Of a DNA stretch of 64,000 nucleotides, positions 5,101 through 63,659 are shown in pieces (positions within the stretch are counted from its first letter, which is position 1; each line of letters begins with the position of its first letter). Source of the DNA: Dehalococcoidia bacterium. Its GTDB lineage: Bacteria > Chloroflexota > Dehalococcoidia > Bin125. Made by a program: the position numbers and the translations under genes. The stretch covers positions 8,234 to 72,233 of the forward strand of contig OZ241375.1 in the NCBI GenBank assembly GCA_965200625.1, read 5' to 3'. Below the pieces are notes generated by a model. The model searched no databases, was not told the DNA's origin, and worked only from the letters and a program-made list of their open reading frames with translations.

Positions 5101-5180
5101 CGATCCTCCGCCCAGCTGGCTGCTCGCAGCCAATGGCAGACCTATCATGGCGGCGGACTGTTGTTTGAGGGGAGCTGGAG

Positions 5181-6392
5181 ATGGCCGGTCCGTTGGCTGG
5201 GGTGCGTGTCTTTGATCTGACGCTATGGATGGTCGGGCCGTGGGCGTCGATGCAGCTGGGCGCGTTGGGCGCGGATGTGATTCATATTGAGCAGCCAGGC
5301 GTGGACCCGCGCACGTTGGGCGCGGGCGTGCCGCCGGCGATCAATGGCACCTCGGTCGGCTACATCACCTGGAACATGAACAAGCGCGGACTCTTCCTCG
5401 ACCTCAAGTCGCCGGCTGACCGCCAGACCGCCTACGAGCTGCTGCAAACCTGCGACGTGTTCCTGATCAACATGCGGCCCGGCGCGGCGGAGCGGATGGG
5501 CGTGGGTTACGAACAGGTCGCGGCGGCGAATCCGAACATTGTCTACACCGCGATCACCGGTTGGGGCGAGGTCGGCCCGATGCGCGACAAGCCGGGCGCG
5601 GATGTGCAGTGTCAGTACTTCACCGGCTTCTGGTCGGTGAGCGGCAAGCGCGGCGGCTGGCCTGAGGTCTACCGCCACTTCACGCAGATGGACGCGAGCA
5701 CCGGCAACGTCGCCGCGCAGGCGGTGCTGATGGGTCTGCTGGCGCGCAAGCGGACGGGCCGCGGGCAGCGCATCCACGTGGGGATGCTGCGCGCCGGGAT
5801 GGCGCTCCAGAGCGGGAGGATCGCGGAGTATCTGGCCAGCGGCGTCCAAGCGCCGCCGTTGGGTTCGGCCGGCTACGCCGCCGCGCCGGATCAGGCGTTT
5901 CAGTGTCAGGGCGGCGACTGGATCGGCGTCGCAGCGACCTGCGAGTCGGAGTGGCGGCGGTTGTGCGAGGCGCTGGCCGCGTCGGAGGCGGAAGGTCTGG
6001 ACGACTTGGCGTCTGATCCCCGATTTGCGACAAACCTGGATCGCGTCGCCCACCGCGACGCGCTGGCGGCGATCTTGCAGAACGCCTTCGCGCAGCGGCC
6101 GCGGCATTACTGGATGCTGCGCCTCGCCGACGCGGGCGTGCCTTGCGGCTATCCGATTGCGTTTGAGTCGCTCCAGCATCACGCGCAGGCGATTGAGAAT
6201 GGCTATCTGCGCGAGGTGACGACCTCAGGTTGGGGCGACGTGTGGACGGGCGGGCCGCCGTGGACGTTGTCGCGCACGCCGGCGCGCTGGACGGGCACGC
6301 CGCTGCCGGGCGAGCACACGGGCGGCATCCTCGACGAGCTGGCGCAGCGGCAGGCGGCGGTTGCAGAGCCGACGCCGGTGATCGGCGACTAG
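5181..6392 (+). CDS. CoA-transferase family III (CaiB/BaiF-like)
   Basis: ORF track. MAGPLAGVRVFDLTLWMVGPWASMQLGALGADVIHIEQPG...INMRPG is a canonical family-III N-terminus. Confidence 0.9.
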   Translation: MAGPLAGVRVFDLTLWMVGPWASMQLGALGADVIHIEQPGVDPRTLGAGVPPAINGTSVGYITWNMNKRGLFLDLKSPADRQTAYELLQTCDVFLINMRPGAAERMGVGYEQVAAANPNIVYTAITGWGEVGPMRDKPGADVQCQYFTGFWSVSGKRGGWPEVYRHFTQMDASTGNVAAQAVLMGLLARKRTGRGQRIHVGMLRAGMALQSGRIAEYLASGVQAPPLGSAGYAAAPDQAFQCQGGDWIGVAATCESEWRRLCEALAASEAEGLDDLASDPRFATNLDRVAHRDALAAILQNAFAQRPRHYWMLRLADAGVPCGYPIAFESLQHHAQAIENGYLREVTTSGWGDVWTGGPPWTLSRTPARWTGTPLPGEHTGGILDELAQRQAAVAEPTPVIGD

Positions 6393-6393
6393 C

Positions 6394-7563
6394 GTGCCCG
6401 GTCCGCTGGAGGGTTACCGCATCATCGAGATCGCCGAAGGCGTCGCCGGCCCGTACACGGCGATGTCGCTGGGCGACGCCGGCGCGGACGTGATCAAGGT
6501 CGAGCCGCCGACGGGTGATCGGGCGCGCGGCTGGGCGCCGCCGGTTGAGGGCGGCGGCTCGGCGCTGTTCCAGGCGCTCAACCGCAGCAAGCGCGGGATC
6601 ACGCTGGACTGGTCGTCCGAGCGCGACATTGAGATCGCGCAGCAGTTGCTGGGTAGCGCCGACGTGGCAATCGTCGACAAGGCCGGCCTGCCCGCTCCTC
6701 TGCGCTGGGAAGCGCTGGACGCTCCGGGACTAGTCTACTGCGCGCTCTCCGGATTCGGGCCGCGCGGGCCCTGGCGGGAGCGGCCGGCGTCCGAGCTTGC
6801 GGCGCAGCTGGCCAGTGAAGCGACGGCGTCGCTGGGCAGCATTGGAGAGGAGCCGGTGCGGCACGGCGGCGATATCGGCTCGATGTACGCCGCCAACTAT
6901 GCGATTCAGGCGATCTGCGCGGCGCTCTACGCGCGCGACGACTCCGATCCGTCCGCGCCGACGGGCGGGCAGCGGATCGAGGTCTCGTTGTTCGGCAGTC
7001 TGCTAGCGATGCGCTCGACGCTCTGGGTGGCGCTCTCCAATCCCGATGAATGGTGGGGCTTTCACCTCGATTCCTACGTCAAGCCGCCCGATCACGGCTA
7101 TCAGTGCCGCGATCTGCCGATCTACTTCTCGCTGGCGCGCATTCGCGGGGATGCGTTTGAATCGTTGATTGACGAGTTGGGTATGGACTGGGCGCGGGCG
7201 CATCCCGACTTCGCGCGGCTGCGCACGGACGGGGCCGGCGGCGCGGGCCGCTATGCGGCGGAGCTCAAGCAGCTCTGGGAGCGCGGGTTCTCGAACTTCG
7301 ACGCCGAGCGAGTGATCGAGATCGTCGAGCGGCACGGCGGCTGGGCCTTCTCGATGCACGACTACGAGCGGCTCAGCCGCGATCCGCAGGTGGCGGCGGT
7401 GGACGCGATTATCGAGGTGGAGCAGGGCGACGGTTCGTCGCTGCGACAGGTTGCGCCGCCGTGGGACTTTGCCGGGACGCCGGTCGCGGCGCCGCGTCCC
7501 GCGCCCGCGCTGGGCGAGCATCAGCGGGAGGTGCTGGAGGAGCTCGACGTTCTGCGCCGCTGA
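6394..7563 (+). CDS. CoA-transferase family III (second copy)
   Basis: ORF track. MPGPLEGYRIIEIAEGVAGPYTAMSLGDAGADVIKVEPP. Confidence 0.9.
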   Translation: MPGPLEGYRIIEIAEGVAGPYTAMSLGDAGADVIKVEPPTGDRARGWAPPVEGGGSALFQALNRSKRGITLDWSSERDIEIAQQLLGSADVAIVDKAGLPAPLRWEALDAPGLVYCALSGFGPRGPWRERPASELAAQLASEATASLGSIGEEPVRHGGDIGSMYAANYAIQAICAALYARDDSDPSAPTGGQRIEVSLFGSLLAMRSTLWVALSNPDEWWGFHLDSYVKPPDHGYQCRDLPIYFSLARIRGDAFESLIDELGMDWARAHPDFARLRTDGAGGAGRYAAELKQLWERGFSNFDAERVIEIVERHGGWAFSMHDYERLSRDPQVAAVDAIIEVEQGDGSSLRQVAPPWDFAGTPVAAPRPAPALGEHQREVLEELDVLRR

Positions 7564-14543: not shown

Positions 14544-16780
14544 ATGCGGCTCGTGCGACTGTTGGTGGGGTTGGCGGCGCTGGTGGCGGTTTTGGCGGGC
14601 GGCTCGCTGGCGTTGGGGCAGACCTATGACGCGGGGCTGAACGCGAGCGTATCGGGCACGTATGTGCACGTGACCTGGAACGGCGACGTGGACGCGCCAG
14701 GGGGAGAGCAGGCGACCGGGTTTGCGCTGCAGCGGGCGGTCGCAGGGACGGAGCTGGGCGAGTGCAGCGACGCTCCGAGCGCGAGCGTGAGTCGGTTCCC
14801 GGAGTCGGGAGAGCTGAGCAAGGACGACTTCCGGAACTACACCGCAGTCGCGCTGACGCCGGGACAGAGTACACCTTCCGGCTCTGCGGGGCGTACGGGA
14901 GCAACGATACGTCGTACGCCATTCAATCGGTGAACGCCACGACGACCAGTCCCGCCGCCCTCGAGGGGCTCACCCTGGAGAAGATGGGCGGCAGCGTGCG
15001 GCTCAGCTGGAACGAGTACTCGAACGCTGACGGCGAGACCGCAGACCGTTACCGCCTCAATTGGGGACCGCTGGACACCGCCGCCAGCGGCGATGCCCAG
15101 TACCGGCGCATCCGGGAGAGCCGGGCGACCAAGGCGCAGGACGACATCTGCGACGCCGACGGCCTCTGCGCCATGAACATCATCGGCTTGACGAACGGAA
15201 CCGCGTACGGGTTCTGGGTGTTCGCGACCTACGCCGGACAAGGCGGCGGTCATGCCGCGGAGACGGAGCCGCGGACGGAGACGCCGGAGCTGCTCGAGCT
15301 GAAAGGCTTGACGCTCAGCGGCACGGCGGACGGCAAGCTCCTGGTCGAATGGGCCAGTGGTCCGAGTGGGACACAGCACTACCACGTGCGCTGGAAGGAA
15401 ACCGGCAGCATCGGCTGGCAGGGCATCATGCTGGACAAAGACGAGCGCAGCGTGGAGCTCGGCGGGATCACGCTGGGACACGACGTCTCGGTGGAAGCGG
15501 AAGCGCTGGTCGCCCGCAACCCGAGCATTGTCGCGGCGCGGGCGGAGGGCGAGACCTCGGCGCACATCGCGGTCAGCGCCAGCGCCGAGGCGCGGACCGG
15601 CACGCTCCACGTCGCCTGGGAGGTGCCGGACGACGTGGATCTGAGGAACGACTGGGGCGTCAACCGCTGGTCGATCACCTGTAAGCCGACGGATCCGGCG
15701 CACGGGTCGGGCGGCGGCAACATCAACCCGCCGGCGGACCATGATCACACGCTGCCCGTCCTGCCGATCGTGGAGCATCAGGTCACGATCAAGGGGCTGA
15801 CCTCCGACAACCGAGTGGTGGCGATGGGCAGCGCGACCGGCACGCCGAATCCGCTGCCGACGGCGCCCGCGATCGTGCCGCTGGGCGCGGTCACGACGAC
15901 GACGGTCGCCGCGGAATTCCCCGCAGTCCCCTACGATCCCGAGAATCCCGACAACCCCGAGGCGGGACCCAGCGTGCCGCCCGGCATTCGGGTTGAGTGG
16001 GAGTTGCCTGCGGGCGTCGCCGCCAATGACGTCAGCGTCTGGCGGGTCTGTGTGGACGGGCTGTGCTACCCGAACAATACGGTGAGCTCGGGGAGCACCC
16101 TGCGCGTGGTCTGGATTGGCTGCACGGAGGACGCCAACGAGATCTGCGACCCGGGTGAGCACGTCGTCAGCCCGAATCATCCGATTCAGATGAACACCTG
16201 CCACGAGATCGAGGTCACGGCCCTGAACCAGCACGAGCAGGTGCTGACACAGGGCACGGGCGAGGGCTGGGTGCTGGATCACAACGGCAACCCACCCGCC
16301 TGCGCCCCAGCCCCGCCGGCAGACGAGGAAGAAGAAGCCGAGCCGGGCGGCAGCGGCAACAACGTCGGAGGCGGCGGTGACAGCGGTGGAGGCGGTAACA
16401 GTGGCAACACGTACACGCCGCCGACGTCCAACTACGTACCGCAGTCCGCGTCGCAGCCGACGCCTGCGCCGCAGCCGGCACCCAAGTTAGCGATTGAAAC
16501 GATTGATCTGAGCCTGAGCTCACAGACGACCCTGCTGCGGGAGGTCGTGACGGCGACCATCGCGCTGAGCACCAGCGCCGGCGCGGCCATTGACGATACG
16601 GTCATGATCGATGTCAGCGGCGATCTGAATCTGCGCGTGCTGGACGTTGATCTGGAGGCGGGCGTTGCGTCTACCAACGGTGAGGTGACGGTGAGCTTTG
16701 AGGTTGTCGGCGGCGGTGGCTCGTCGACGATTACGGCGATGGTCGGCGATGACGATGATCCGGTGACCGCCTCGGCGTAG
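14544..16780 (+). pseudogene. large secreted fibronectin-type-III repeat protein (signal peptide, multiple FN3 modules, Gly/Pro-rich region), interrupted by a -1 frameshift at ~14861
   Basis: ORF 14544..14933 (frame 0, signal peptide MRLVRLLVGLAALVAVLAGGSLALG) and ORF 14762..16780 (frame 2) overlap. The FN3 consensus ...ALTPG|TEYTFRLCGAYGS is restored if one G is added to the GGG run. Confidence 0.7.
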
Positions 16781-17038
16781 GTGACGTTGGAGGCGGATCT
16801 GGACTGTTTGGCCGCGCGAGAGTGGAAGCTGGATACGTTCATGGTCTGGGCTTGCGAAGGCGAGATCGGGGCGGCGGAACTGTACGACGCCCTGCAGGAC
16901 GTTGGCTCGAGCGCCATTCTCTACTGGGATCGGGAGTCCGGCTGGCAGCGGTATGCGCAGTTGGCGAACGGGCAGCAGGTACCGGGTTCGGTTGAGTTCC
17001 AGCTGTCGCAGCACAGCATCGTGTGGTTGGCGAGCTAG
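16781..17038 (+). CDS. hypothetical small protein (85 aa), GTG start abutting the upstream stop
   Basis: ORF track, with a strong GC3 bias. Confidence 0.35.
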   Translation: MTLEADLDCLAAREWKLDTFMVWACEGEIGAAELYDALQDVGSSAILYWDRESGWQRYAQLANGQQVPGSVEFQLSQHSIVWLAS

Positions 17039-17717: not shown

Positions 17718-20700
17718 ATGCGGGGCTCCGATTTCCGATCTCTCTTCCCGATGGGGCGCTGTGCTTCCTTGTTCCTGCTGGTTCTGCTGGCGGTTGGGGG
17801 TGGGCTGAGCCTGGGTTCGCTGCCGGCTGGCGCCCACACGAGCAGCAACCACGGCTACGTCACGCTGCTCGAGACGACGATGGTTGCCAAAGAGGAAAAT
17901 CTTGGGGCCCGGATCGGCCACGTTCGAGATAACGGTGCTTTGGCGGCAAAGACTTTCATTTATAAGGGGATCGAATATCACATTGACGGTATGTACGAGG
18001 ATACACAGGGTGAGGATACATTTAAATTCAGGACAACAAGGCCGCCTTCCACCAACTCGGACATCGGTCTGACGGAGGTCAACAAACTCAAGATTGAGAT
18101 CGATGGCAAGACCTTTGAAGGAGGATTTACGGCAGATACCTTCAGCACGAGGTACACACAGGCCGACAAGGGGTTAGATCTCTCAGACAACAAGACCGAA
18201 GCCACGAAGGCGACCGTCAAGATCAGCACGAAGGAGGTCCACCACGTCGCGCCTACCAACATTGCGGCTACCGCGCAGGGGACCACGACGCTCAGAGTAA
18301 CGTGGAACGACCCCCCCCGGGGCGACGGGCTTTCAGATCAGGCATAAGGCCACGAGCACCAGTACCTGGGGCTCCTGGTCGACGGCCACATTGTCAAATC
18401 CGAGTGACATTACGGGCCTGACGAGGGGCACGTCGTATAACATCCAGGTGCGGGCGGGCACCAACTCGGAGCCGGGGAACTGGGGCGCCGGGATCACGGC
18501 GTCGACGCCGACCCTGGACGCGCCCACCGGCGTTGCGGCGACGTCGCCTTCTTCAAGCCAGCTCACGGTCACGTGGAACGCTGTGACCGATGCGGACAGC
18601 TACCAGGTACGGTACAAGGCGTCGGGGACCAACAGCTGGGGGCACTGGGGAACGGCGACCTCGCCCACACCATCAACAACCTGGCGGCGAACACGCAGTA
18701 CGACATCAGCGTGCGGGGGCGGGACGGCAGCGACGCGGGCGATGCCACGACAATCATGAACGTGAGGACTTTGCGGCTGGCGGCGCCGGGCAACCTGGCG
18801 GCGACGTCGTCCGTCTCCACCCAGCTGGTGGTCACGTGGAGCGCCGTGACCAACGCGGCCAACTATCAGCTCCGGTACAAGCTCAACAGCAGCAGCAGCT
18901 GGGGGAGCTGGGGGACGGCGACCTCGCCGCGCACGATTACGGGTCTGACGGCGAACACGCAGTACAACATCGAGGTGCGGGCGCGGGACAGCAGCAATAG
19001 CGAGGGGGACGCTGCCGCCGTCACGGCGAGGACGCTGCTGGCTCCGCCGACCAATGAGGCGGCGGCGGCGGCGGTCGCGACCGAGCTGACGGTGACGTGT
19101 ACGGCGGTGAGCGGCGCGGCCAGCTATGAGGTGCGGCACAAACGATCCAGCACGAGCTCCTGGGGGAGCTGGGGAGCGGCGTCCTCGCCGCACGAGATTA
19201 CGGGGCTGACGGCGAATACGGAGTACGACATCGGCGTTCGGGCGAAGGACAGCAGCAACAACGCGGGGGAGGTGGCGAGCATCACGAACGTGCGGACGCC
19301 GCTGTCGCCGCCGACGGGGTTGTGGCATCCGACGGATACGGATGACTATGACCCGCGGTTCGGCAGATTCGGCAGCGGCTGGTGGGATGAGGACATGATC
19401 ACCGTGTTCTGGAACGCGCTGACTGATGCGGCCTCCTATGAGATGCGCTATCGCGCGGTCAAGGGGACGCAGGAGGATACCTGGTCGGCCTGGGCGGACG
19501 CCGATGAGTTTGACCGCGAGCATGGGCTGACGCTGTCTGATCTGTTCCCGGCGTACGCGGGGATCGAGTACGAGATCGAATTGCGGGGCGTGCATAGCAG
19601 CAACCGCAAGGGCGAGGCGACGTCGTACACGGCGCAGACGAAGTACAACGCGCCGACGGCGGTGTCCAATGTGCGGGTGGCGTCGAACGACGGGGAGCTG
19701 GCGGTCGCCTGGACGCCGAGGCGCCACAATGAGAGTTGGAGCGTGCGGTCGGAGCGGTAGGATGTGAACCAGATCGCGTCGGTGTCGGCGTCCGCGCCAC
19801 ACACGACGCTCACGGAGCTGGAAAGTGGCGTGGCGTACGGGATCCGGGTGCAGGCGCAGCGGGATCTGGGGACGGATCCGTTTGGCACACATCACATCGT
19901 GACCACGGGTTGGAGCGCCGTTGTCTACAGTATGCCAATGACGGCGCCGGGGTCGCTGACGGTGACGCCGGTGACGACTCGGGATCCGGACTTGATCTAT
20001 CGGCCACGGTTCCCGCTGCTGCCGCCGGGCACGCCGCTGCCGCCGCTGCCGGGGCTGCGGCCGGATGACGAGATTGTGAAGGACGGAGAGGCGCTGGAGA
20101 TCAGTTGGGAGGCGGTCGCGGGCGCGGCGACGTACGGCGGCTATCAAGTGGCGTTCCATCCGGGGAACAAAGCGCCGTCGAGCTGGCATACGCTGCTGCT
20201 GGAGGGGACGTCGTTCACGGTCGCGGGGGTGGATCCGTTGTATGTGGTGAGCGTGCGGGCGGTGGCGCAGATGCCGGATGATTCGATAGTCTACGGGCCG
20301 TACGCGAGCACTAGCGGCGTGATCGGGGTGAATCCGTCACCCAGTCCGGGTCCCAGTCCCAGCCCGTCGCCGAGTCCCAGCCCGAGTCCGAGTCCGCCAC
20401 AGGAGCCGATTGTGAGTCCGCATCCACCGTCTGGGGTGCGGCCAGTGCAGCCGAGTCCGCCGGTTGAGCAGCCGGGGATCAAACCGCCGACGGAGGGCAA
20501 GCCGCAGGAGCCAGCGGAGAGGGAGAGGCGGACTGCGCCGCCGGGCGCGCCGCCGCCGGACGACGGGGTGGGGATTAATCCACCGGGTCCGCCGCCGGGG
20601 CCGCTGCCGGAGCCGCCGGAGGACAGGCCGCCACCGAACGATGAGCCGCGGCCGGGTCTGCCGGGTCCGCCGCCGGATGACCGAGCGGGCATCTTCGGCC

Positions 20701-20726
20701 TCCTGTCGGGGGGGATGGTGCACTAG
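17718..20726 (+). pseudogene. very large secreted FN3-repeat protein (signal peptide, ~7 FN3 modules, Pro/Ser-rich C-terminus). Disrupted by a +1 insertion in a C8 run (18311-18318), a -1 change at the CCC run at 18664-18666, and an in-frame TAG at 19758-19760.
   Basis: Consecutive ORFs 17634..18347 (frame 0), 18391..18759 (frame 1), 18573..19760 (frame 0) and 19764..20726 (frame 0) all carry the same FN3 periodicity (L.V.W...YQVRYK...WG.WG...ITGLTANTQY.I.VRA). The domains continue seamlessly across each break. Confidence 0.7.
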
Positions 20727-25597: not shown

Positions 25598-26118
25598 GCG
25601 AGCACCGCGGCGGTCAGGCGGCTCGGGCCCTGCACGCCGATGGTGAGCGAGCGCTCGATGTCGGCGGTGCGCGAGGGGCCGCTGACGAAGGTCGCGTAGG
25701 CGGCGGCGCGCGGCTGCTGCGCGAGCCAGCGGAAGCCGTCGGCGAGATCGTCCACGATGTCCGCCTCCGCCACGGCGACGATCAGGTGCTGCGTGAGCAG
25801 CGACACGGCGCGGTCAACGGGCGCGGGTTCGATCAGCAGCAGGGAGCCGGTCTCGGCGACGGCGAGCGTCGCCACGGTGATCCCGACCGGGTGGTCGGCG
25901 ATGGAGCGCAGCGGGTCGTCCGGCTCGGGCAGGCGTCCGCGCTGGAGGTGCGCATACGCGCTCGGCGAGACGGCGGGGAGCGCGTCGCTGAGCGACTCGG
26001 CGTACTGCCAGAGGTCGTCCCACGAGGCGCAGAACAGCGGCTCGCCCTGCACCGCCTGGAGGGCAGCGGCGAAGCTGGCGGTGCGACGGTTCGCGGGAGA
26101 CAGGGTGGGGTCGGGCAT
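25594..26118 (-). CDS. lutC: lactate utilization protein C (LUD domain)
   Basis: ORF track. There is a 4-bp ATGA overlap with lutB. Confidence 0.8.
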   Translation of the reverse strand: MPDPTLSPANRRTASFAAALQAVQGEPLFCASWDDLWQYAESLSDALPAVSPSAYAHLQRGRLPEPDDPLRSIADHPVGITVATLAVAETGSLLLIEPAPVDRAVSLLTQHLIVAVAEADIVDDLADGFRWLAQQPRAAAYATFVSGPSRTADIERSLTIGVQGPSRLTAAVLA

Positions 26119-26221
26119 GGGGGAATTCTACAAGCCGTCAGCGCGGCCTCCGGGGGCTCGGGCTCCAGCGCAGGTACGCTGGCGGCGAGGACTTGATGAT
26201 CCGACGAGGGGAGCGCAGGCG

Positions 26222-27376
26222 ATGATTGAGCTGACCGAGGCGCAGCGCCTGATCCAGCGGACCGTGCGCGATTTTACCCGCGATCAGATTGATCCGATTG
26301 CGGACAAGATAGACCGCGAGGATTACTTTCCCCGCCAGCTCTGGCCGCAGCTGGGTGCGCTCGGGCTGTTGGGCGTGACGATTGCGGAAGCGTACGGCGG
26401 CGCGGACGCGGGCCTGTTGGCGGGGGTGATCGCGACCGAGGAGATCGCGCGGGGGAGCGCGTCGATCGCGCTGTCCTACGGGGCGCACGCCAACCTCTGC
26501 GCGAACAACATCGCCGCGAACGGCTCGGAGGCGCAGAAGCGGCAGTATCTGCCCGGTCTCTGTGACGGCACGCAGATCGGCGCGCTGGCGCTGACCGAAC
26601 CGGAGGCGGGTTCGGACGCGCTGGGCATCCGCACGACCGCTGTGCGCGACGGCGACGTCTACCGCCTCAACGGCAGCAAGATGTTCATTACAAACGGGTC
26701 GGTGGCGGACACGCTGGTGCTCTACGCGAAGACTGACCCGGCGGCCGGCTCGCGCGGGGTGACAGCGTTCATCGTCGAGTCAGCGTTTGCGGGGTTCCGC
26801 GTCGGGCAGGTGCTGGACAAGGTGGGCCACCGCGGCTCGCCGACGGCGGAGCTGATTCTCGAGGACTGCATCGTGCCGGCCGCGAACGTGCTGCGCCGCG
26901 AGGGCGGCGGCGCGGGCGTGATGATGCAGGGGCTGGCGGTCGAGCGGGCGTTCCTCGCGGGCGAGCCGCTGGGGATCGCGCAGGCGGCGCTTGATGAAGC
27001 GGTCGAGTACGCGCGCAACCGCCGGCAGTTCGGTCAGCGGATCGGCGATTTCCAGCTGATCCAGGCGATGCTGGCGGATATGTACACGGAGCTGGAGGCG
27101 GCGCGCTGGCTGGTCTATCGGACGGCGCATCTGGTCGAGCAGGCGGCGGCGCGCGGCGAGCGCAGCAACAAGGAGGCGGCTGCGGCAATCCTCTATTCCG
27201 CCGAGATGTCCAGTCGGGTGGCGGACAAGGCCGTGCAAATCCACGGCGGCTACGGCTACATGAGCGAGAGCCGAGTCGCCCGCTACGTCCGCGACGCCAA
27301 GCTGCTCGAGATCGGCGCGGGCACGTCAGAGATTCGGCGGATGCTGATCGGGCGGGAGTTGATTGGTCCCGAGTGA
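26222..27376 (+). CDS. acyl-CoA dehydrogenase
   Basis: Internal ATG MIELTEAQRLIQRTVRDFTRDQI...YGGYGY. The ORF-track upstream extension is antisense to lutC. Confidence 0.9.
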   Translation: MIELTEAQRLIQRTVRDFTRDQIDPIADKIDREDYFPRQLWPQLGALGLLGVTIAEAYGGADAGLLAGVIATEEIARGSASIALSYGAHANLCANNIAANGSEAQKRQYLPGLCDGTQIGALALTEPEAGSDALGIRTTAVRDGDVYRLNGSKMFITNGSVADTLVLYAKTDPAAGSRGVTAFIVESAFAGFRVGQVLDKVGHRGSPTAELILEDCIVPAANVLRREGGGAGVMMQGLAVERAFLAGEPLGIAQAALDEAVEYARNRRQFGQRIGDFQLIQAMLADMYTELEAARWLVYRTAHLVEQAAARGERSNKEAAAAILYSAEMSSRVADKAVQIHGGYGYMSESRVARYVRDAKLLEIGAGTSEIRRMLIGRELIGPE

Positions 27377-27394
27377 CGGAGCTACGTCAAGAGC

Positions 27395-27795
27395 CCGCTT
27401 TCCCTGAGGGGAGCCCCCCTCAGTCGCTCCGCGACAGCTCCCCCAGAGGGGGGAGCACTGATTCCATCGTTCCTGCGCAAGCAGGAACCCAAGCGGAGTC
27501 GCGTTTCCGCCGGTGTCGCTCGGTCACGTCGTCAATGCGGCGCTCTCGCTGCTTGGGGGGTGATTTCGGCCATCGTATGGGTTCCCGCGTTCGCGGGAAC
27601 GACGGTGGGGGTGGACGCGCGGATGATGGGGTGTTCGCCTCCCCCTTCCGTCGTTCCTGCGCAAGCAGGAACCCAGACGGTGGGAGTGGGCGCGAGGGTG
27701 ATGGGGTGCTCGCCAGCTTCGGGAGCCCCCCTTCAGTCGCTGCGCGACAGCTTCCCCCAGAGGGGGGCAGCGGGGGATTTGGTTAGCTGCTGAGG
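27395..27795. repeat. dense cluster of REP-like hairpin repeats (CCCCTCAGTCGCTCCGCGACAGCTCCCCCAGAGGGGGG; CGTCGTTCCTGCGCAAGCAGGAACCCA x2; TGGGTTCCCGCGTTCGCGGGAACGACGG)
   Basis: Readable inverted repeats shared with 14300-14480, 57975-58215 and other sites. Confidence 0.85.
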
Positions 27796-28310
27796 AGGAT
27801 GCGGCGGCCTTGCTCGTAGGCGTCAAGGGCGCGGGCCTGGAGTTCTTCGGGGCTGGCGCTGCCGATGGGGTGGTTGACGAGGGCGTAGCGGAAGTCGGGC
27901 ATGCCGAGGGTCTTGGCGATCATTCGCCCGGTTGGGTCGAAGGGGTGCGTGCAGAGGACGAGGCCGGGCTTGCCGTACTGCTCGAAGGAGATGCCGTCGT
28001 GCACACTGCACGTGGAGCAGGAGCCTCAATCGCCGACCGCGGTGATCAGGAAATCGACGTCATTGGCGATCCGTTCCAACACCTGCGGCTCGGCGATGCG
28101 GCTGGCGTTGCGCTTGCCGCTGTCGATCACGATGCGGCAGTCCGCCTCGCGCTCGAACACTTCGGCGGTGTAGCGCAGCAGCCGGTCGGCGTTGACCTTG
28201 CCGTTGGAAAACAGGCCGATCCGCAGGCCGTCGAGCGCAGTCAGGCGCGGCGCGGCGCGGAAGCCGGTGGGTGTGGGGTCGCCGGTCGGGTCGAAGAGTT
28301 CCAGGGCCAT
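27783..28310 (-). CDS. candidate UGSC-family selenoprotein (~175 aa) with selenocysteine encoded by an in-frame TGA at 28026-28028
   Basis: ORFs 28026..28310 and 27783..28004 are in the same frame, separated only by TGA. The context ...FLITAVGD-U-GSCSTCS... gives a U-G-S-C / UxxCxxC motif. A hairpin lies 13 nt downstream. Confidence 0.5.
27998..28012 (-). promoter_or_regulatory. candidate minimal bacterial SECIS hairpin (mRNA CGUGCA-GUG-UGCACG) 13 nt 3' of the UGA
   Basis: A perfect 6-bp stem with a GUG loop, read from the sequence. Confidence 0.35.
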
Positions 28311-28334
28311 CAGTTGCTCCGTCTGAGATTCGGG

Positions 28335-29393
28335 TCAGCAGTCGAGGCAGACGCCGATCGCTTTGGTTTGGTAGATCGAGTTGCGCCCGCGGCTCCAGGA
28401 GGGGAGGAAGGCGGAGTGCCCGCCCGCTTCGCCGCCGGCGACGACGAGCAAGATGTCCTCGGGGCGGCGGCCGCGGTGGAACGCGCCGTTGCCGCGTTCG
28501 CCCTCGGCGAGGCCGTCTTGCGGGCGGCCGGCGGGCCATTTGCCCTTGCTCAGCATCTCCTCCGGTGGGCGGTTGGCGTGCTCGAACAGGTACTGCTGGA
28601 CGTCCTGCTTGCGGAAGCCGCTGGAGGCCGCGATCTGGGCGTGCTCGGGCGACATCACGACCAGCGACTGGCCGTCGGTCAGCGCGCCGAGCGAGGCCAT
28701 GGCGTCGGCGAAGGTGTCGAGCAGGCGCTCGGGATCGCTGGTGTAGTGATTTTCGATGTTGTAGAAGCCGGAGGCGGCGAAGACCGTGGCGGTGCTGACC
28801 TCGGGCGGGAAGCCGAGCGATTCGTGCAGCGGTTCCCAGGGGCTGTGGAGGATGTTCTCGGCGATGCAGCAGGCGTACTTGCCCGGCCAGCCCGTGGTCG
28901 AACGGTCGGAGATGCCCGGGATCATCTGGAAGATGTTCATGATGATCAGGCGGAGCGCGCGGCCGATGGTGGCGTTGGCGCGGTTGCCGGGGCCGAAGAC
29001 GTTGACGCTGGCGTTCATGCCGATTTCGTCGCGGATGTCGCCGGAGACGATCACGACCGGGGCGGAGCCGCCGGTGCTGGCGGTGGAGCCGTGGAAGTTG
29101 TAGGCGTCCTCGTTGAGGCCTTCGAGCGCGGCCAGCACGGTGGGGAAGTACTGGGGCAGACAGCCGGCCATGACGGCGTTGACGGCGGCCGACTGGACGC
29201 TGCACTCGCGGCCGGTGGCGGGATGACGGGCGACGATCTCCTCGGGCGGACGGCCCGCGGCGGCGAGGAAGCGTTCGACCCGCTCGCGCGCGGGCGGGAC
29301 GACGGGCAGGCCGTCGGTCCAGCCCTGTTCGTAGCACCAGTCGATGGCGGAGAGTTCGTCGGTCAGCGTGTGGGTCGGGGTGGAGGAGCTCAT
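28335..29393 (-). CDS. conserved hypothetical protein (352 aa), family not recognised
   Basis: ORF track. Good GC3 bias. GSTASTGGSAPVVIVSG and NVFGPGNRANATIGRALRL motifs. 24 nt downstream of the selenoprotein candidate. Confidence 0.55.
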   Translation of the reverse strand: MSSSTPTHTLTDELSAIDWCYEQGWTDGLPVVPPARERVERFLAAAGRPPEEIVARHPATGRECSVQSAAVNAVMAGCLPQYFPTVLAALEGLNEDAYNFHGSTASTGGSAPVVIVSGDIRDEIGMNASVNVFGPGNRANATIGRALRLIIMNIFQMIPGISDRSTTGWPGKYACCIAENILHSPWEPLHESLGFPPEVSTATVFAASGFYNIENHYTSDPERLLDTFADAMASLGALTDGQSLVVMSPEHAQIAASSGFRKQDVQQYLFEHANRPPEEMLSKGKWPAGRPQDGLAEGERGNGAFHRGRRPEDILLVVAGGEAGGHSAFLPSWSRGRNSIYQTKAIGVCLDC

Positions 29394-34988: not shown

Positions 34989-36551
34989 CTAGACGCAGGT
35001 GGGCCAGCTGGCGAGCTCTTTGGTGTCGCCTCGGCGGGGCGGGCGGACGGGGAAACGCTGGAGCGATTCGAGCAGCCAGCGGCGGGTGTCGGCCGGGTCG
35101 ATGATCTCGTCGAGATTCATGATCCCGGCTGCGCCCCACGGTTCGTGGCCGAGCGTCCATTCGTCAATCAGGCGCTGTCGTTCCGCCTCGGGATTGGCCG
35201 CGTGGGCGATGTCACGGGCGTGGACGACGTTGACGCCGACGCCGGGGTCCATGAACGAGATCTCCGCGCCCGGCCAGGCGGTGATCAGGTCGTTGTTCAT
35301 GCTGTTGCCGGAGAGCGAGAAGTAGGCCAGGCCGAAGGCCTTGCGCAGGACGACGGTGAGGCGCGGCACGGTCATCAGCGCCAGCGCCTCCATGAACATG
35401 ATCGCCTTGTGCAGCAGCCGCGCGTGTTCGGGCTGCGAGCCGACGATGAAGCCGGGCACGTCCTGCAGCCAGACCGTCGGGATGTTGAAGGCCTCGCACA
35501 GACAGACGAACTGCGTGGCCTTGTCGCACGTATTCGGATCGAGCGCGCCGGCGTTGAACATCGGGTTGCTGGCCAGGATCCCGACCGTCTGGCCGCCGAT
35601 GCGGGCCAGCGTCGTGATCAGCGACCGACCGAAGCGCGGCTTGAGCTCGAACAGCTCGCCGTCGTCGACAATGCGCTCCAGCACGCGGTGCATGTCGTAG
35701 GCGCGCTGGCGGCGGGTGGGCACGAGGTTGGCGAGCGTCTGGTCGGGTTCGGCCTGGTCAAAGCCGCTGCGCACGGGCGGCAGCTCCCAACAGTTCTGCG
35801 GCAGATACGAGAGGAACGTCTTGAGCTGGGCGATGGCGTCGTCCTCATCCTCCGCCGCGCGGTCGATCTGCCCGGTCAGATCGAGGTGGATGTCGACGCC
35901 GCCGAGGTCTTGGAGGCTGATCTGCTCGCCCGTGGCGATCTCGATCACGCGCGGCGAGGAGACGTTGAGCGCCGAGCCGCGCACCTGGACGGTGAAGTCG
36001 GAGTAGGCGCTGTGGAAGCTGGAGCCGCCGAACGACTCGCCGACGATTGCGGTCGCCATCGGAATCCGCCGCCGCCGTCGGGCCGACTCGATGCCGGGCG
36101 GAATCTTGCTGAAGCCCTCGGAGCCGAGCGCGTCGGGCAGGCGCGCGCCGCCGGTCTCGCCGAAGTAGACGTAGGGCACGCCCTGCTTGAGCGCCTGCTC
36201 GTAGATGCGTTTCATCCGCTTGCCGCCGACCACGGAGGAGGAGCCGTGCAGCACGGTCACGTCGTCGCCGCAGGCGGTGGCGGCGCGGCCGTCGATCGTC
36301 CCCCAGCCGCCGATCTTGCCGTCGCCCGGTGTGCGATCGCGCACCTCGGGCATTTCAGACATCGCAAACGTGCCGATTTCGCGGAAGCTGCCGGGGTCGA
36401 AGAGCCGGTCGAGCCGTTCGCGGATGGTCAGGCGGCCTTTGGCGTGTTGGCGGGCGATGCGCTCGGGCGAGCCCATCTCGGCGACGATCTTCTGCCGCCG
36501 CATGAGCAGGTCCGCGCGAATCTGCTGGGGCGTGGGCGGGGTGACGGCCAT
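34989..36551 (-). CDS. acyl-CoA carboxylase carboxyltransferase (beta) subunit (propionyl-CoA carboxylase family)
   Basis: ORF track, with canonical PccB-type sequence throughout. Confidence 0.9.
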   Translation of the reverse strand: MAVTPPTPQQIRADLLMRRQKIVAEMGSPERIARQHAKGRLTIRERLDRLFDPGSFREIGTFAMSEMPEVRDRTPGDGKIGGWGTIDGRAATACGDDVTVLHGSSSVVGGKRMKRIYEQALKQGVPYVYFGETGGARLPDALGSEGFSKIPPGIESARRRRRIPMATAIVGESFGGSSFHSAYSDFTVQVRGSALNVSSPRVIEIATGEQISLQDLGGVDIHLDLTGQIDRAAEDEDDAIAQLKTFLSYLPQNCWELPPVRSGFDQAEPDQTLANLVPTRRQRAYDMHRVLERIVDDGELFELKPRFGRSLITTLARIGGQTVGILASNPMFNAGALDPNTCDKATQFVCLCEAFNIPTVWLQDVPGFIVGSQPEHARLLHKAIMFMEALALMTVPRLTVVLRKAFGLAYFSLSGNSMNNDLITAWPGAEISFMDPGVGVNVVHARDIAHAANPEAERQRLIDEWTLGHEPWGAAGIMNLDEIIDPADTRRWLLESLQRFPVRPPRRGDTKELASWPTCV

Positions 36552-36617
36552 GTGCTGCTCCTGCGGCGATTGATGGTCAGCGGTGGGGATTCGCTCCGAC
36601 GATAGCGGCTGACGCAG

Positions 36618-46250: not shown

Positions 46251-46493
46251 TGCCTCCCTTCCCGAGTGCCGGTCTGATCGCAACCTATGGACGGCTTGGC
46301 CTGCGCTGGTTTCGCTGGAGTTGCGCGCAGATGTCGGTTCGGTTGCGTTGAGATTGCGAACATGTGTCCCCCGGTTACGACTGTGTTTCCGACCCGTCTC
46401 ACACATTGACGCGCAGAGCCGGATAGCGGTTCGGTACGATTGGGCGCAGGACGTCGGGGATTCGCAAGGCTCGGGAGTGAGTGGAGGCTGTCC

Positions 46494-48092
46494 ATGCGGG
46501 AGACGCCGGTGTTGGTGGTTGGCGGCAGCCTGATTGGCCTGACCTGCTCGCTGCTGCTCTCCAGCCTGGGCATTGAGCACGTCCTCGTGGATCGGCGGCC
46601 GCACACGAGCGATCATCCGCGGGCGCGGCTCTATGACCGCCGCACGCTGGAGCTGCTGCGCCGCTTTGGCGTCCAGCACGACGTGGAAGCGACCGGCATC
46701 GGCGATCTGTGGACGCGGCAGAACCGCTGGATTCACAGCCTCAGCGGGGCGCAGATCGCCTCCGTGCCGACCGAGTCGTTCCAGATGGCGCCGGTTGACT
46801 ACAGCCCCAGCATCCCGGTGATGGGCGCGCAGGACCTGATCGAGGAGACGCTCTGGCAGGCGGCGCGCGAGCAGGCGTCGGCCGATGTCCGCTTCCACAC
46901 GATCGCGGAAGACCTGGAGCAGGACGCTGACGGCTGCCGCGCCCGGCTGCGCGATCGCGATACCGACCAGGTGGAGGCAATTCATGCGCAGTACGTCGTC
47001 GCCGCGGACGGCGTGCACAGCGGTACGCGGGAACTGATCGGCTGCCCGCTTGGCGGTCAGACGTTCAACGTCTACATGCAGGACATCCTCTTCCAGGCCG
47101 ACCTCTCGCGCTGGGTCGGCAATCGCGTGGGCGGTCTGCTGTTCATGTTGACCCAGTACGGACTCGGCGTGTACCAGCCGATGGACGGCGCGCTGCGCTG
47201 GCGCGTCCAGCTGCCCAACTGGGATCCGGAACGCGGCGACCTTCCCGTAGAGACGGCGCGCGACTACATCGTTGAGGCGGTCGGCGTGGACGCCGCCGAG
47301 CTTGACCTCGAGATCCAGAGCATTCGCCCCTGGCGCTTCATCGCCGGGTTGGCGAAGCGGTTCGCCAACAACCGCATTTTTCTCGCGGGCGACGCGGCGC
47401 ACGCCTTTATCCCGACCGGCGGGATGGGGAGCAACACCGGGTTCAGCGGCGCGCATAACCTGATCTGGAAGCTGGCGTATGTGCTGCGCGGACACTCGTC
47501 GGTCTCGCTGCTCGATACCTACGAGGGCGAGCACCGCCCGATCGCGGAGCGGCGGGTGGCGCTCCGCATCGAGAATGGGCAGCTGGCTGCGGCGATCGTG
47601 CGGACGTACATGAGCGGCGGCGACATGGCGGCGGCGGAGCGCAACTGTCATCAGTACGGCAGCTATGAGGGCATGATCATGGCGTACGAGTATCAGTCGG
47701 CGCTCTGTCAGGCTGATTCGGAGCCGCCGCCGTAAGTCGAGAATGAGCACCGCGACTTCATCCCCGTCGTGCGCGGCGGCCGCCGCGCGCCGCACGCGTG
47801 GTTGGATCCGCACCGCTCGGTCTCGACCCTCGACTGGTTCGGGACGGACTACGTCGTGATGCTCTGCCAGGGCGAGCGGGCGGACTGGCGAGCCTGGGAA
47901 GCGGCTGTGGACGCCTGCCGGACGCGCGGTTTCCCGATCCGGATTGAGCCGATGCGGCACGGCGCGAACACGCCGTACGCGGAGTCGGAGGCGGTCGTCG
48001 TGCGCCCGGACGGCGTGGTCGCGGCGCACACTACTGCCGCTGATCCGCGCTCGCCGCAAGAGGTGCTGGAGCGCTATCTGCCGATGGCGTAA
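46494..48092 (+). pseudogene. FAD-dependent aromatic-ring monooxygenase (PheA/TfdB-like), interrupted by an in-frame TAA (47733-47735) between the FAD domain and the C-terminal thioredoxin-like domain
   Basis: ORFs 46440..47735 (MRETPVLVVGGSLIGL... GD.xHxxxPxGGxGxNxG) and 47769..48092 (RAPHAWLD...STLDWFG) share a frame. ...SEPPP*VENEHRDFIPVVRGGRRAPHAWLD is contiguous in homologues. Confidence 0.75.
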
Positions 48093-55232: not shown

Positions 55233-56624
55233 CTACAGCCAGACAGGTTCGTGGGTTCCGGGTTTCACGGTTCGGCTCCACTGGGGCTGGATGTCGCTGA
55301 ACTGGATGGGGAAGCGGAGCCTGGTGAGCGCTCCGTAGTCGGAGGCGACCGTTTCGCTGTATTGGTCTGCCAGGCGGAAGCCCTCTTGGGGATCGGCGGC
55401 GGCGATCGCGTGGGGCGCGCCGAGCCGGAGGAACCAGGCGGCGGTCTGGCCGAGCGCGACCTGGACGTGCCAGCTACCGCCCTCCACCGCGCGGCGGCGC
55501 AGCGCGGCGAGTGCTCCGTACGCGCCCCAGTAGCCGGTGCCGTAGTCGTTGAGCGCCATCGCCGGACCGTCGGAGATGAGGGCGGTCGGGTCCTCCCGCT
55601 GGTGGAGATGGTGGATGCCCGAGGCGGCCTGGACGTTGCCGTCGAAGCCGCGCTTCTCCTGCCAGAGACCGAATTGGCCGTAGGCGTTCTCGGAGATGTA
55701 GATGATGCCCGGCCGACGCTCCGCCAGCGCCTCCGGACTGAGGCCGCGCCGCGCCAGCGACCGGGCGCGGTAGGACTGACTGAAGACGTCCGCCCCGTCG
55801 ATCAGATTCCAGAGCGCGTCCTGACCCTCCGCGGTCTCAAGGTCGACGAAGGCGCGGCGCTTGCCGTGTCCGGTGTCGGCCTGAGCGGCCTGCATATCGA
55901 CGACGTGCGGCGAGCCGATGTGCAGGACGTCTGCGCCCAGCGCGGCGAGCGTGCGGGAGATCGTCGGGCCGGCGAGGACGCGGGTGCTGTCGATTACGCG
56001 GACGCCGTGGAGCGGCAGCTCGCCGCCGGGGATCGGCTGGGGCGGCGCGTCGCCGATCTTCTCGATCTTCACAGCGGGCGAGTCGGCGAGCATTGCGCCC
56101 TGCGGATGCGCTTGCCACTCCTCGGGCGTGCGCACCACGACGCCGGTGAGCTGCGCCTCGACGAGCCTGGCCTCCAGCGCGTCGGCGTCGTGGGCGGCGA
56201 CGTGCTCGGCGAGCGTCTCGGACGTGCAGCCGAGCGCGTCCAGCGTGCGCTCAACGATGTGCGGGAAGCCGCTGAGCAGGTAGAGGTAGCGGCCGTCGCG
56301 GGTGGGAAAGATGCCCTGGCCCGGCGCAATCGAGTCGGGCAGCGAGGCGAGCGCGTTCTGGCCGTCAATCTCCAGCACCCACATCGACGAGATGCCGATC
56401 GCCGCCTGACCCAGATGAATCTGTGCGCTCTGCCGTTGACCGGTCTGCTGAGCGCGGATGTCGTCAACGAGCCCGGCGATGTTGCCGAGAATCGAGGCGG
56501 TGCCCGCCGCGAGCCGCAGCGGGGAGGGGAAGATCGGGTCGCCCTCGCCGACGAACTGGAGGTCGGCGGCGGTCGGTTCCACGCCAGCGGCGCGGGTGAT
56601 CGCTTCAAACTCAGCGCGTTCCAT
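55233..56624 (-). CDS. CoA-transferase family III (third copy)
   Basis: Start MERAEFEAITRAAG. Family-III fold motifs. Confidence 0.85.
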   Translation of the reverse strand: MERAEFEAITRAAGVEPTAADLQFVGEGDPIFPSPLRLAAGTASILGNIAGLVDDIRAQQTGQRQSAQIHLGQAAIGISSMWVLEIDGQNALASLPDSIAPGQGIFPTRDGRYLYLLSGFPHIVERTLDALGCTSETLAEHVAAHDADALEARLVEAQLTGVVVRTPEEWQAHPQGAMLADSPAVKIEKIGDAPPQPIPGGELPLHGVRVIDSTRVLAGPTISRTLAALGADVLHIGSPHVVDMQAAQADTGHGKRRAFVDLETAEGQDALWNLIDGADVFSQSYRARSLARRGLSPEALAERRPGIIYISENAYGQFGLWQEKRGFDGNVQAASGIHHLHQREDPTALISDGPAMALNDYGTGYWGAYGALAALRRRAVEGGSWHVQVALGQTAAWFLRLGAPHAIAAADPQEGFRLADQYSETVASDYGALTRLRFPIQFSDIQPQWSRTVKPGTHEPVWL

Positions 56625-56741
56625 GCTCCGTCCCTTCCCTGTTAGTCGTGCGCAGGCTAACGAACCGCCGCTCAGTGACAGGCGTAGCTCCATATGCTGT
56701 ACGCCGATCAGATGCTCAGGAATTGCGAGGGAGAGCGACCG

Positions 56742-57974
56742 ATGCCCCGCCGCGATTCGGACCGGGAAGAAGACGCGCTGTGGCAGCTGGCCCGCGCGCG
56801 GGGGCTGAGCCGCCGCCGGTTTCTGGCGCTGCTGTTGGCCGGGGGCGCGGCCTCGGTGTTGATGGCCTGCGGCGACCCAATTCCCGAGCGTTCAGCTGAA
56901 GCGCAGATGCAGGCGGTCAGAATCTTCAAAGACCCGGCGCCGTTCACTCGGCATGGAGCAGCGGGCCTGGAGTCGCGCCTGGAGCTGCTGGGCGGCGAGT
57001 TTCTGACGCCGACCGAGCGGTTCTTCGTGCGCAACAACTCGCGCAGCCTGGACATCGACGCCGATCGCTGGTCGCTGACGGTTGAGGGCGACGCAGTCCG
57101 GCGTCCGCAGCAGCTGAGTCTCGAATTGCTCAACGAATTGACGCGAGTGACCGTGACCGCCTACCTGGAGTGCGCGGGCAACCAGCGGGCGATGTTCAAA
57201 CTGCTGCACGGACAGGCGGGCAAGGGGACGCAGTGGGGGCGCGGCGCGGTCGGCAACGCGGATTGGACCGGCGTCCCGCTGCGCGATGTCCTGACGCTGG
57301 CCGAGCTCGACGCTGACGCCGTCAGCGTGCTCCTGATCGGCCTGGACGCGGAGAGTCCGGAGGAGGGCTTCCGCCGCGTGCTGCCCGTCGACAAGGCGAT
57401 GCACCCCGACACGCTGCTCGCCTACACGATGAACGGCGAGCCGCTGACCAAAGATCACGGCTATCCGCTGCGCGCGATTGCGCCCGGCTGGGTCGGCGCG
57501 TCGCAGATCAAGTGGCTGGACCGGATTGTGGTCTCGAAGGAAGCACGGTGGACGCGGAACAACACCACGTCGTACGTCCTGATCGGGGACGAGTATCCAG
57601 CAGAGGGCGAGGCAACCGGGCAGGTCGTGACCGTGCAGTCGATCAAGAGCGCGTTGGCGCTGCCCTGGCCGGCGCGGCTGTCGGCGGGAACGGTCACGCT
57701 GCAAGGCTTCGCGCACTCGGGGCACGGCGCAATCGCTCAGGTGGAGTGGAGCGTTGACGGCGGCGTCAGCTGGCAGGAGGCGCTGGTTGGCCAGCAGGAG
57801 GACTACTCCTGGGCGCCATTCGAGTTCGAGTGGTCGGCGACGTCGGGCGAGTACGAGCTCATGACCCGCGCCACCGACATCAAGGGAAACACCCAGCCCG
57901 CCACCATCCCCTTCAACGAGAAGGGCTACCTCTTCAATCAACCGCTGCCCCATCCCATCTCCGTGAGCGCATAA
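56742..57974 (+). CDS. sulfite-oxidase-family molybdopterin oxidoreductase with a Tat signal
   Basis: MPRRDSD...SRRRFLALLLAGGAASVLMACG, plus Oxidored_molyb and dimerisation-domain features. Confidence 0.85.
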   Translation: MPRRDSDREEDALWQLARARGLSRRRFLALLLAGGAASVLMACGDPIPERSAEAQMQAVRIFKDPAPFTRHGAAGLESRLELLGGEFLTPTERFFVRNNSRSLDIDADRWSLTVEGDAVRRPQQLSLELLNELTRVTVTAYLECAGNQRAMFKLLHGQAGKGTQWGRGAVGNADWTGVPLRDVLTLAELDADAVSVLLIGLDAESPEEGFRRVLPVDKAMHPDTLLAYTMNGEPLTKDHGYPLRAIAPGWVGASQIKWLDRIVVSKEARWTRNNTTSYVLIGDEYPAEGEATGQVVTVQSIKSALALPWPARLSAGTVTLQGFAHSGHGAIAQVEWSVDGGVSWQEALVGQQEDYSWAPFEFEWSATSGEYELMTRATDIKGNTQPATIPFNEKGYLFNQPLPHPISVSA

Positions 57975-62739: not shown

Positions 62740-62815
62740 GGAGCGGCGCACCCCTTCAGTCCCTACGGGACAGCTTCCCCCCCCAACGGGGGCAGCGGGG
62801 AATTTAGCGGCCGCG
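62740..62815. repeat. REP-like repeat with a C8 tract (62777-62784)
   Basis: CCCCTTCAGTCCCTACGGGACAGCTTCCCCCCCCAACGGGGGCAGCGGGG. Confidence 0.7.
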
Positions 62816-63619
62816 GAATTGGGCGGGGCGTTTTTCGAGGAAGCTGTCGATCCCCTCTTGCCGATCCTCGGATCTGCCGGTGATGCTCAGACCCCACGCC
62901 TCGCGCTCGACCTGCATGTCGAAGTTGGGCGCGCTGGTGTTGACCAGCCGCTTGGTCAGCTCGATGGCCAGCGACGGCCCGCGCGCGATCTTCTCCGCCA
63001 ACGCCAACGCCTCGTCGAGCAACGTCTCCGGATCGAGCGTACGGTTGACGAGGCCGTAGCGCTCCGCGTCGGCGGCGCTGAGCGGATCGCCCGTGTACAT
63101 CAGCTCCAGCGCGCGGCCCTTGCCGATCATCTGCGGCAGATAGTACGTGCTGCCCGTGTCGGGGACGATCGCGCGGTGGACGAAGGCGCTGATGAAGCGC
63201 GCGTTGGTGCTCGCCAGGCGGATGTCGCAGGCCAACGCCAATGACATGCCCGCGCCCGCCGCCGCTCCGTTGACCGCGGCGATGATCGGCTTCGGGTAGT
63301 CGTTGAGCGCGGCAAACAGCACGCCGTAGTGCCCGATCGGCGCTTCCGTGTGGCGGCGGTAGCTGTCGGCGTCGATCAGTTCGCGGGTCAGGCGGGCAGC
63401 CTCGGCACCGCCCGAGACGTCCGCGCCCGCGCAGAACCCGCGTCCCGCGCCGGTCACGACCATCGCCCGGACGGAGTCGTCATGGCGCGTCGCTTGGAGC
63501 ACGTCCAACAGCTCATGCACGAGCCGCGGACCCATCGCATTCATCTTCTCAGGCCGCTGCAGGGTGACAAGCGCCACCCCATCGCGCCGCTCGAGGCTCA
63601 GGTCTTCATAGGTGGACAT
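62804..63619 (-). CDS. enoyl-CoA hydratase/isomerase (crotonase family)
   Basis: MSTYEDLSLERRDGVALVTLQRPEKMNA...GAGRGFCAGAD. Confidence 0.9.
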   Translation of the reverse strand: MSTYEDLSLERRDGVALVTLQRPEKMNAMGPRLVHELLDVLQATRHDDSVRAMVVTGAGRGFCAGADVSGGAEAARLTRELIDADSYRRHTEAPIGHYGVLFAALNDYPKPIIAAVNGAAAGAGMSLALACDIRLASTNARFISAFVHRAIVPDTGSTYYLPQMIGKGRALELMYTGDPLSAADAERYGLVNRTLDPETLLDEALALAEKIARGPSLAIELTKRLVNTSAPNFDMQVEREAWGLSITGRSEDRQEGIDSFLEKRPAQFRGR

Positions 63620-63659
63620 CCACAAATCCTTCCACTGCTCTCCGCCATGCTACGCGACT

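Follow-up and report, generated by a model that had tools for sequence, protein, structure and literature searches.

The UGSC family of selenoproteins goes by the name 'UGSC-containing protein' in the metagenome surveys of Zhang and Gladyshev, and a "Trx-like fold" was suggested for it in 2008; in the Global Ocean Sampling (GOS) survey 255 selenocysteine (Sec) forms were counted against 21 Cys forms (PMC2398784). According to a passage in PMC5330540 that cites Mukai et al. (2016), members of the Geodermatophilaceae carry a tRNA-Sec with the anticodon CUA, and from the same family come reports of UGSC-motif selenoproteins whose Sec codon matches it. Bacterial selenocysteine insertion sequence (SECIS) elements have been modelled as well, the bSECISearch model being mentioned in PMC9312934. 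Here we analyze a stretch of 64,000 nucleotides from a Dehalococcoidia bacterium of the Chloroflexota (contig OZ241375.1 of assembly GCA_965200625.1), referred to below as the window. Positions 27783-28310 of its minus strand are, very probably, a single gene for a UGSC selenoprotein of 175 residues, in which an in-frame TGA would be decoded as Sec by means of a downstream hairpin, and which stands beside the gene of a conserved partner protein of 352 residues.

The gene (27783..28310, minus strand) begins with an ATG at 28310-28308. A first open reading frame (ORF), 28026..28310, comprises 94 codons and closes with a TGA at 28028-28026; the sequence 27783..28025 continues in the same frame, with 80 further codons up to a TAA at 27785-27783. 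The TGA is the candidate Sec codon (28026..28028, codon 95; U95 in the motif VGD-U-GSC), placed by a codon alignment and by comparison with Cys homologues, and the joined product reads ...DVDFLITAVGD-[TGA]-GSCSTCSVHDGISFEQYGKPG... The locus had been pointed out in an original prediction, made by a model from the letters of the window, which described two minus-strand ORFs lying in one frame and split only by TGA, with the motif FLITAVGD-[TGA]-GSCSTCSVHDG at their junction. Our coordinates and joined translation agree with this description, as does the further claim that TGA is a functional stop for other genes of the window. TGA is indeed an ordinary stop in this genome, since it closes about 20 of the 46 window ORFs that are listed as coding-like, including the 352-residue ORF directly upstream. 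A scan for promoters and terminators, which is uninformative for this phylum, found nothing.

Family membership was examined with the joined protein, scored with Cys substituted for Sec. The protein matches the Pfam "UGSC family" (PF24696) from end to end, covering residues 5-172 of its 175 and positions 2-170 of the 172 in the profile, with 160.6 bits against a cut-off of 25 (E = 5.3e-47). Its U/C-G-S-C motif falls at the conserved position after strand 3, and the assignment to the UGSC family agrees with that of the original prediction. An alignment of the joined translation to CGSC homologues had been proposed as a check; two homologues (P0002 and P0003), along with over 100 other Cys forms of full length, align contiguously across the junction, with Cys (DCGSC) opposite the TGA. 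Those Cys forms that carry names are Actinomycetes proteins, listed by NCBI as "UGSC family (seleno)protein". When a profile of the N-terminal half only was used to search 1.84 billion representatives, 2,838 representatives of the UGSC family were retrieved. Among the top 150, about 95% have lengths of 92-105 residues; these are gene calls truncated at the Sec codon, and gene callers split UGSC homologues into two ORFs. The prevalence of short, Sec-truncated representatives agrees with the 255 Sec and 21 Cys forms of the GOS survey (PMC2398784). The locus resembles the described family in its full-length domain match, in an invariant U-G-S-C at the aligned position, in the excess of Sec over Cys forms and in a length of about 175-180 residues. 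On these sequence grounds 27783-28310 (minus strand) is one gene and a member of the UGSC family, which is already catalogued.

Conservation of the Sec codon was followed across genomes. One genome per species was scanned with the neighbouring 352-residue protein, yielding 80 loci from many phyla, and 76 UGSC genes were aligned from these loci, from a syntenic metagenome contig (L001) and from the window. The codon opposite the TGA is TGA in 73 of the 76 genes; the only other codons are TGC, in two Cys forms, and TAG, in one gene. The U-G-S-C motif is invariant in the Sec forms (74/74). The original prediction had read a UxxCxxC arrangement at this site, of which the U-G-S-C part holds throughout the family; the third Cys does not, being present in 53 of the 74 Sec forms and replaced by W, G, S or A in the rest. 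The TAG occurs in Geodermatophilus ruber DSM 45317 (L073, position 5738-5740), where it is followed by an intact hairpin, CGGCCA-GUU-UGGCCG. The UAG-encoded UGSC selenoproteins of the Geodermatophilaceae thus share family, Sec position and hairpin with the window gene and differ from it in their codon, the window gene having the canonical UGA. Since TAG is found in Geodermatophilus together with a CUA tRNA-Sec, the codon at this position tracks the tRNA-Sec anticodon, which is strong independent evidence for Sec here.

The syntenic contig allows a closer comparison. At a protein identity of 88-90% to the window, its TGA is kept and its hairpin is unchanged. Near the TGA it differs by the synonymous changes GGC>GGA, TGC>TGT and TCC>TCA, and over the 80 codons downstream we counted 24 synonymous and 8 non-synonymous changes, as expected if these codons evolve as coding sequence under purifying selection. 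A pattern of this kind is difficult to reconcile with a true stop, that is, with a pseudogene or an assembly error from which at most a 94-residue N-terminal fragment is made. A stop would be in keeping with the use of TGA at the end of many other window genes, one of them directly upstream, with the splitting of homologues into two ORFs by gene callers and with the lack of visible Sec machinery in the window. It would leave unexplained why 73 of 76 orthologues, from distant phyla, have TGA at this very codon, why the downstream codons complete a single Pfam domain, and why a covarying hairpin is found only behind the TGA and TAG forms. We consider a true stop extremely unlikely.

The hairpin in question (27998..28012, minus strand) is predicted from covariation and RNAalifold to be a minimal bacterial SECIS. 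It has a 6-bp stem, CGUGCA/UGCACG, and the loop GUG, with the 5' stem at 28012-28007, the loop at 28006-28004 and the 3' stem at 28003-27998, and its start lies 13 nt 3' of the TGA. The original prediction had noted this perfect stem (CGUGCA-GUG-UGCACG) at the same distance past the UGA; comparison now adds that it is conserved with covariation and that its GU loop is gone from Cys forms. For this comparison a 57-nt stretch that surrounds the Sec codon was aligned for the 74 Sec-form genes, and the alignment contains no indels. The stem is paired in 444 of 444 cells (100%), and it starts 13 nt after the Sec codon in all 74 genes. Compensatory changes are seen at 3 of the 6 pairs, with double changes in 24 cells; one position occurs as UA, AU, GC or GU, and two others show CG/GC swaps. 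The covariation score was reached by none of 500 shuffles, controls in which the 3' arm was slid gave pairing of 7-70%, and RNAalifold independently predicted the identical helix. An extended lower stem (columns 19-22 with 43-46) was also considered and was rejected, being only 62% paired.

The changes in the stem come with amino-acid changes, TCSVHD becoming SSSVLD, AASVAD or SWSLHD, and the RNA helix is therefore kept beyond the needs of the protein. The serine codon of the loop is AGT in 73 of 74 genes, compared with 3.3% of the Ser codons in window genes. The G and U of the loop (columns G32 and T33) do not vary among the 74 genes and lie at nucleotides 23 and 24 from the U of the UGA, which is also where the fdhF SECIS of E. 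coli has them. The Cys forms served as controls, with 84 genes of which 4 came from genomes and 80 from metagenomes. The loop GU is present in 74/74 Sec forms and in 0/84 Cys forms, and the full 6-bp stem in 74/74 Sec forms as against 11/84 Cys forms. Like the E. coli fdhF element and the bSECISearch consensus, the hairpin lies in the coding region directly 3' of the UGA, has G and U in its loop and varies by compensatory changes in its stem. By comparative sequence analysis it is a minimal SECIS element, made up of the apical hairpin only.

The same data bear on the possibility that the locus holds two small genes, of 94 residues and of 73 residues from an internal GTG (28004), which would divide the UGSC domain between them with no recoding. 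An in-frame GTG does lie 24 nt after the TGA, and the ORF of 73-76 residues reported by gene callers carries PF24696. A protein begun at this GTG would lose G-S-C and the residues up to the GTG, the most conserved stretch of the family, with U-G-S-C in 74/74. Moreover, the GTG has no preceding Shine-Dalgarno-like motif, it is replaced in many orthologues by Leu or Met (CTG, TTG, ATG) or by Ile (ATC), and the Cys forms are single polypeptides. Two separate genes at this locus are likewise extremely unlikely.

The hairpin might instead be a generic stimulator of read-through, with near-cognate or suppressor decoding placing a standard amino acid (Cys, Trp or Gly) at the UGA. The features of the hairpin do not favor such a role, as an invariant GU in the apical loop and a fixed distance from the UGA are hallmarks of SelB-binding SECIS elements. 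Nor does the TAG of Geodermatophilus, which is in step with a CUA tRNA-Sec and so ties the position to tRNA-Sec, or the curation of the family as a selenoprotein family. That the Sec machinery of this genome is assumed, and that Cys is functionally acceptable at this position in some homologues, would speak for a standard amino acid, which we judge to be highly unlikely. The comparative evidence argues very strongly for decoding of codon 95 as Sec. In the mRNA, the hairpin 13 nt downstream of the UGA would present G and U at nucleotides 23 and 24. Acting like the bacterial SECIS elements that have been characterised, it would recruit SelB.GTP.Sec-tRNA(Sec) to a ribosome paused at the UGA, and selenocysteine would be inserted instead of termination.

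The gene for the conserved 352-residue protein (28335..29393, minus strand) lies directly upstream, its stop TGA (28337-28335) being 24 nt before the UGSC ATG. Within this gap a Shine-Dalgarno-like GGAG (28317..28320, minus strand), 6 nt 5' of the ATG, may direct translation of the UGSC gene, which would be co-transcribed with the 352-residue protein and probably works with it. The suspicion that this neighbor is a functional partner gained support from conserved adjacency in two tests. A UGSC gene adjoins the partner in 72 of the 80 genome loci, mostly directly downstream and on the same strand. The reverse test was anchored on Cys-form UGSC genes at 80 metagenome loci, 5 of which were dropped for short flanks, and a partner homologue is directly adjacent on the same strand in 62 of the 75. 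The two-gene module is found in Chloroflexota, Pseudomonadota, Actinomycetota, Acidobacteriota, Methylomirabilota, Binatia and other phyla. Two UGSC genes occur within a few kb of each other at several loci (L046, L070, L080 and L084). At the last of these, from the isolate Pseudoclavibacter endophyticus, there are two UGSC-partner pairs with overlapping stop and start codons, and the pairs flank genes for an acyl-CoA dehydrogenase, an acyl-CoA ligase and a MaoC dehydratase. The partner is the only neighbor of UGSC that is conserved across loci; genes for acyl-CoA dehydrogenases, major facilitator superfamily (MFS) transporters, luciferase-like monooxygenases and short-chain dehydrogenases/reductases (SDR) recur in subsets of the loci only. 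Apparent partner-UGSC 'fusions' in the ORF clustering proved to be artefacts of upstream ORF extension.

The partner belongs to a very large family, which has no model in Pfam or NCBIfam and forms over 7,900 clusters when grouped at 90% identity. Its nearest relatives are in metagenome-assembled genomes of Chloroflexi/Chloroflexota, and it is about 60% identical between Chloroflexota and Gammaproteobacteria. Conserved motifs include GWTDGLPVVPP, NAVMAGC, STASTGG, GPGNRANATIGRA, PGKY, SPEHA, GGHSAF.PSWSR and a C-terminal CxDC. No match to Pfam or NCBIfam was obtained for 55 members even at E = 5, and a hidden Markov model search of the PDB with the partner gave nothing. An AlphaFold2 (AF2) model of the partner (predicted local distance difference test, pLDDT, 80.5; predicted template modelling score, pTM, 0.85) is least confident at the most conserved motifs, STASTGG (residues 104-108) and the loop 160-172 (DRSTTGWPGKY), which might form an active site that depends on a ligand or on a partner. 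In Foldseek searches with the partner, class I fumarate hydratases consistently came first, at a template modelling (TM) score of about 0.27 and an identity of about 10%. The alpha-subunit or N-terminal domain of the class I (Fe-S) fumarate hydratases is thus the closest structural neighbor of the partner; membership in that class is not claimed, as this TM score is too weak and there is no relation at the level of sequence. Cys78, in NAVMAGC, is the only Cys that is shared by the two actinobacterial homologues of the partner under examination (those of the P. endophyticus locus), and a three-Cys [4Fe-4S] site is therefore no feature of the family.

For the UGSC protein, an AF2 model of P0002, its closest full-length Cys homologue (pLDDT 92.9), has five beta-alpha units and suggests a small Rossmann-like domain. 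Residue 100, the Cys/Sec position, lies between strand 3 (92-96) and helix 3 (101-116) of the model. Sec would accordingly be placed at the start of helix 3, right after strand 3, with the invariant Cys three residues on in the first helical turn. This arrangement is typical of UxxC/CxxC redox centres, and the two residues could switch between selenolate/thiol and selenenyl-sulfide. In having U-x-x-C at the N-terminus of a helix that follows a beta-strand, the protein is like the thioredoxin (Trx)-, peroxiredoxin (Prx)- and DsbA-like UxxC/CxxC oxidoreductases, a likeness that would imply selenenyl-sulfide chemistry. It is unlike them in that the thioredoxin fold is absent from the prediction. 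No thioredoxin is among the listed top 60 structural matches of the P0002 model, and the Pfam thioredoxin clan gave no match even at E = 5. The earlier suggestion of a "Trx-like fold" is not supported, the predicted fold not being thioredoxin-like. Searches for remote relatives of UGSC returned no consistent second Pfam family and no sequence match in the PDB. At one locus from Candidatus Poriferisodalis sp. (L024), a UGSC-like ORF at 6810-7151, beside a truncated match to the partner, is without the entire strand-3/U-G-S-C segment and may be a degenerate copy.

Several observations count against the interpretation of this locus as a selenoprotein gene paired with a partner. ARAGORN detected no tRNA gene in the 64-kb window, and Pfam scans found none of SelA, SelB and SelD among the 37 window ORFs; the decoding machinery is assumed because none is present in the window, the only part of the genome that was searched. 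The window is 68.7% GC, and several other neighboring ORF pairs likewise form one frame across a single stop; the ORF pair and hairpin, when judged from the window sequence alone, are no more than chance would give. They stand above chance because the Pfam domain spans the junction and because of the comparative evidence. Scored with Cys for Sec against the NCBIfam model NF041046, "UGSC family (seleno)protein", the protein reaches 124.2 bits, 0.8 below the curated cut-off of 125. Folding of the single sequence was no better than that of shuffles (z = +0.64 for 86 nt and z = -0.65 for 42 nt), and support for the SECIS comes from comparison only. Rfam gave no SECIS match, either at gathering thresholds on the whole window or in E-value mode on 27930-28080.

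The form of the hairpin and the limits of the family data belong with these points. The hairpin is unlike E. coli fdhF in having only 6 bp and a nominal 3-nt loop, and it is without a bulged U and without a conserved lower stem. The bulged U and lower helix are features of the E. coli element and are not known to be general among bacterial SECIS elements. The predicted fold is that of P0002, which is 44% identical to the window protein, and not of the window protein itself, and was obtained from a 62-row alignment. About 13 of the 75 UGSC-anchored loci have no partner nearby, and six of these, all Cys-form loci with 3 kb of flanking sequence on both sides, have no detectable partner (L110, L119, L147, L149, L150 and L155); pairing of UGSC and partner is strong and is not obligatory. 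Finally, reviews of 2022 and 2026 list the UGSC family with no known function.

As a working hypothesis, the partner would be a substrate-binding or catalytic subunit, and UGSC its dedicated redox subunit. That the two physically interact as an obligate two-subunit selenoenzyme of a type not yet described is an idea we put forward tentatively, as plausible if somewhat short of probable. UGSC would contribute a Sec redox subunit that is Rossmann-like and not thioredoxin-like. In the partner, STASTGG and the D163-K172 loop (DRSTTGWPGK) are predicted to be disordered in the protein alone, as if awaiting a ligand or UGSC. The scattered neighbors of the module, including acyl-CoA dehydrogenase, CoA ligase, MaoC dehydratase and an MFS transporter, may hint at a reductive step in the catabolism of organic acids or acyl-CoA in aerobic heterotrophs.

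Other features of the window were noted in passing. The gap of 406 nt between the convergent acyl-CoA dehydrogenase and UGSC genes (27377-27782) is packed with repeats, namely three pairs of direct repeats of 35-40 nt and an inverted repeat of 42 nt. Its equivalent in the syntenic contig is only about 33 nt long, and the segment looks like a REP-like (repetitive extragenic palindromic) or MITE-like (miniature inverted-repeat transposable element) insertion. An aromatic-ring hydroxylase gene at 46410-48092 (plus strand) appears to be split by an in-frame TAA at 47733-47735, with FAD_binding_3 upstream and Rng_hyd_C directly after in the same frame; this may be a pseudogene, a sequencing error or a natural split. 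Two fibronectin type III ORFs, 18441-19760 and 19761-20726 (18441-20726, plus strand), form one frame across a single TAG, and the pair 14630-16780 and 16781-17038 is arranged in the same way. The window is also rich in genes of CoA-linked catabolism (5169-7563, 25700-27376, 34989-36617, 55233-56891 and 62804-63649), comprising three family-III CoA transferases, an enoyl-CoA hydratase, an acyl-CoA dehydrogenase and a carboxyl transferase, which we mention as context only.

The window gene is well supported as a new addition to a selenoprotein family that has already been curated. In itself it is routine, one more copy from a family that ranks among the most abundant environmental selenoprotein families. 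UGSC genes are still cut into two ORFs by standard gene callers, and a correction of their annotation would be useful. The family also offers a clean natural experiment on the minimal SECIS, in which a 15-nt hairpin with a GU loop accompanies all Sec forms and is lost in Cys forms, and in which the codon has switched along with the tRNA in Geodermatophilus. What most merits attention is the conserved two-gene module. UGSC was first described in marine metagenome surveys, and its tight link to one large unannotated family provides a handle on its function; the UGSC-partner pair makes the function of the family experimentally approachable.

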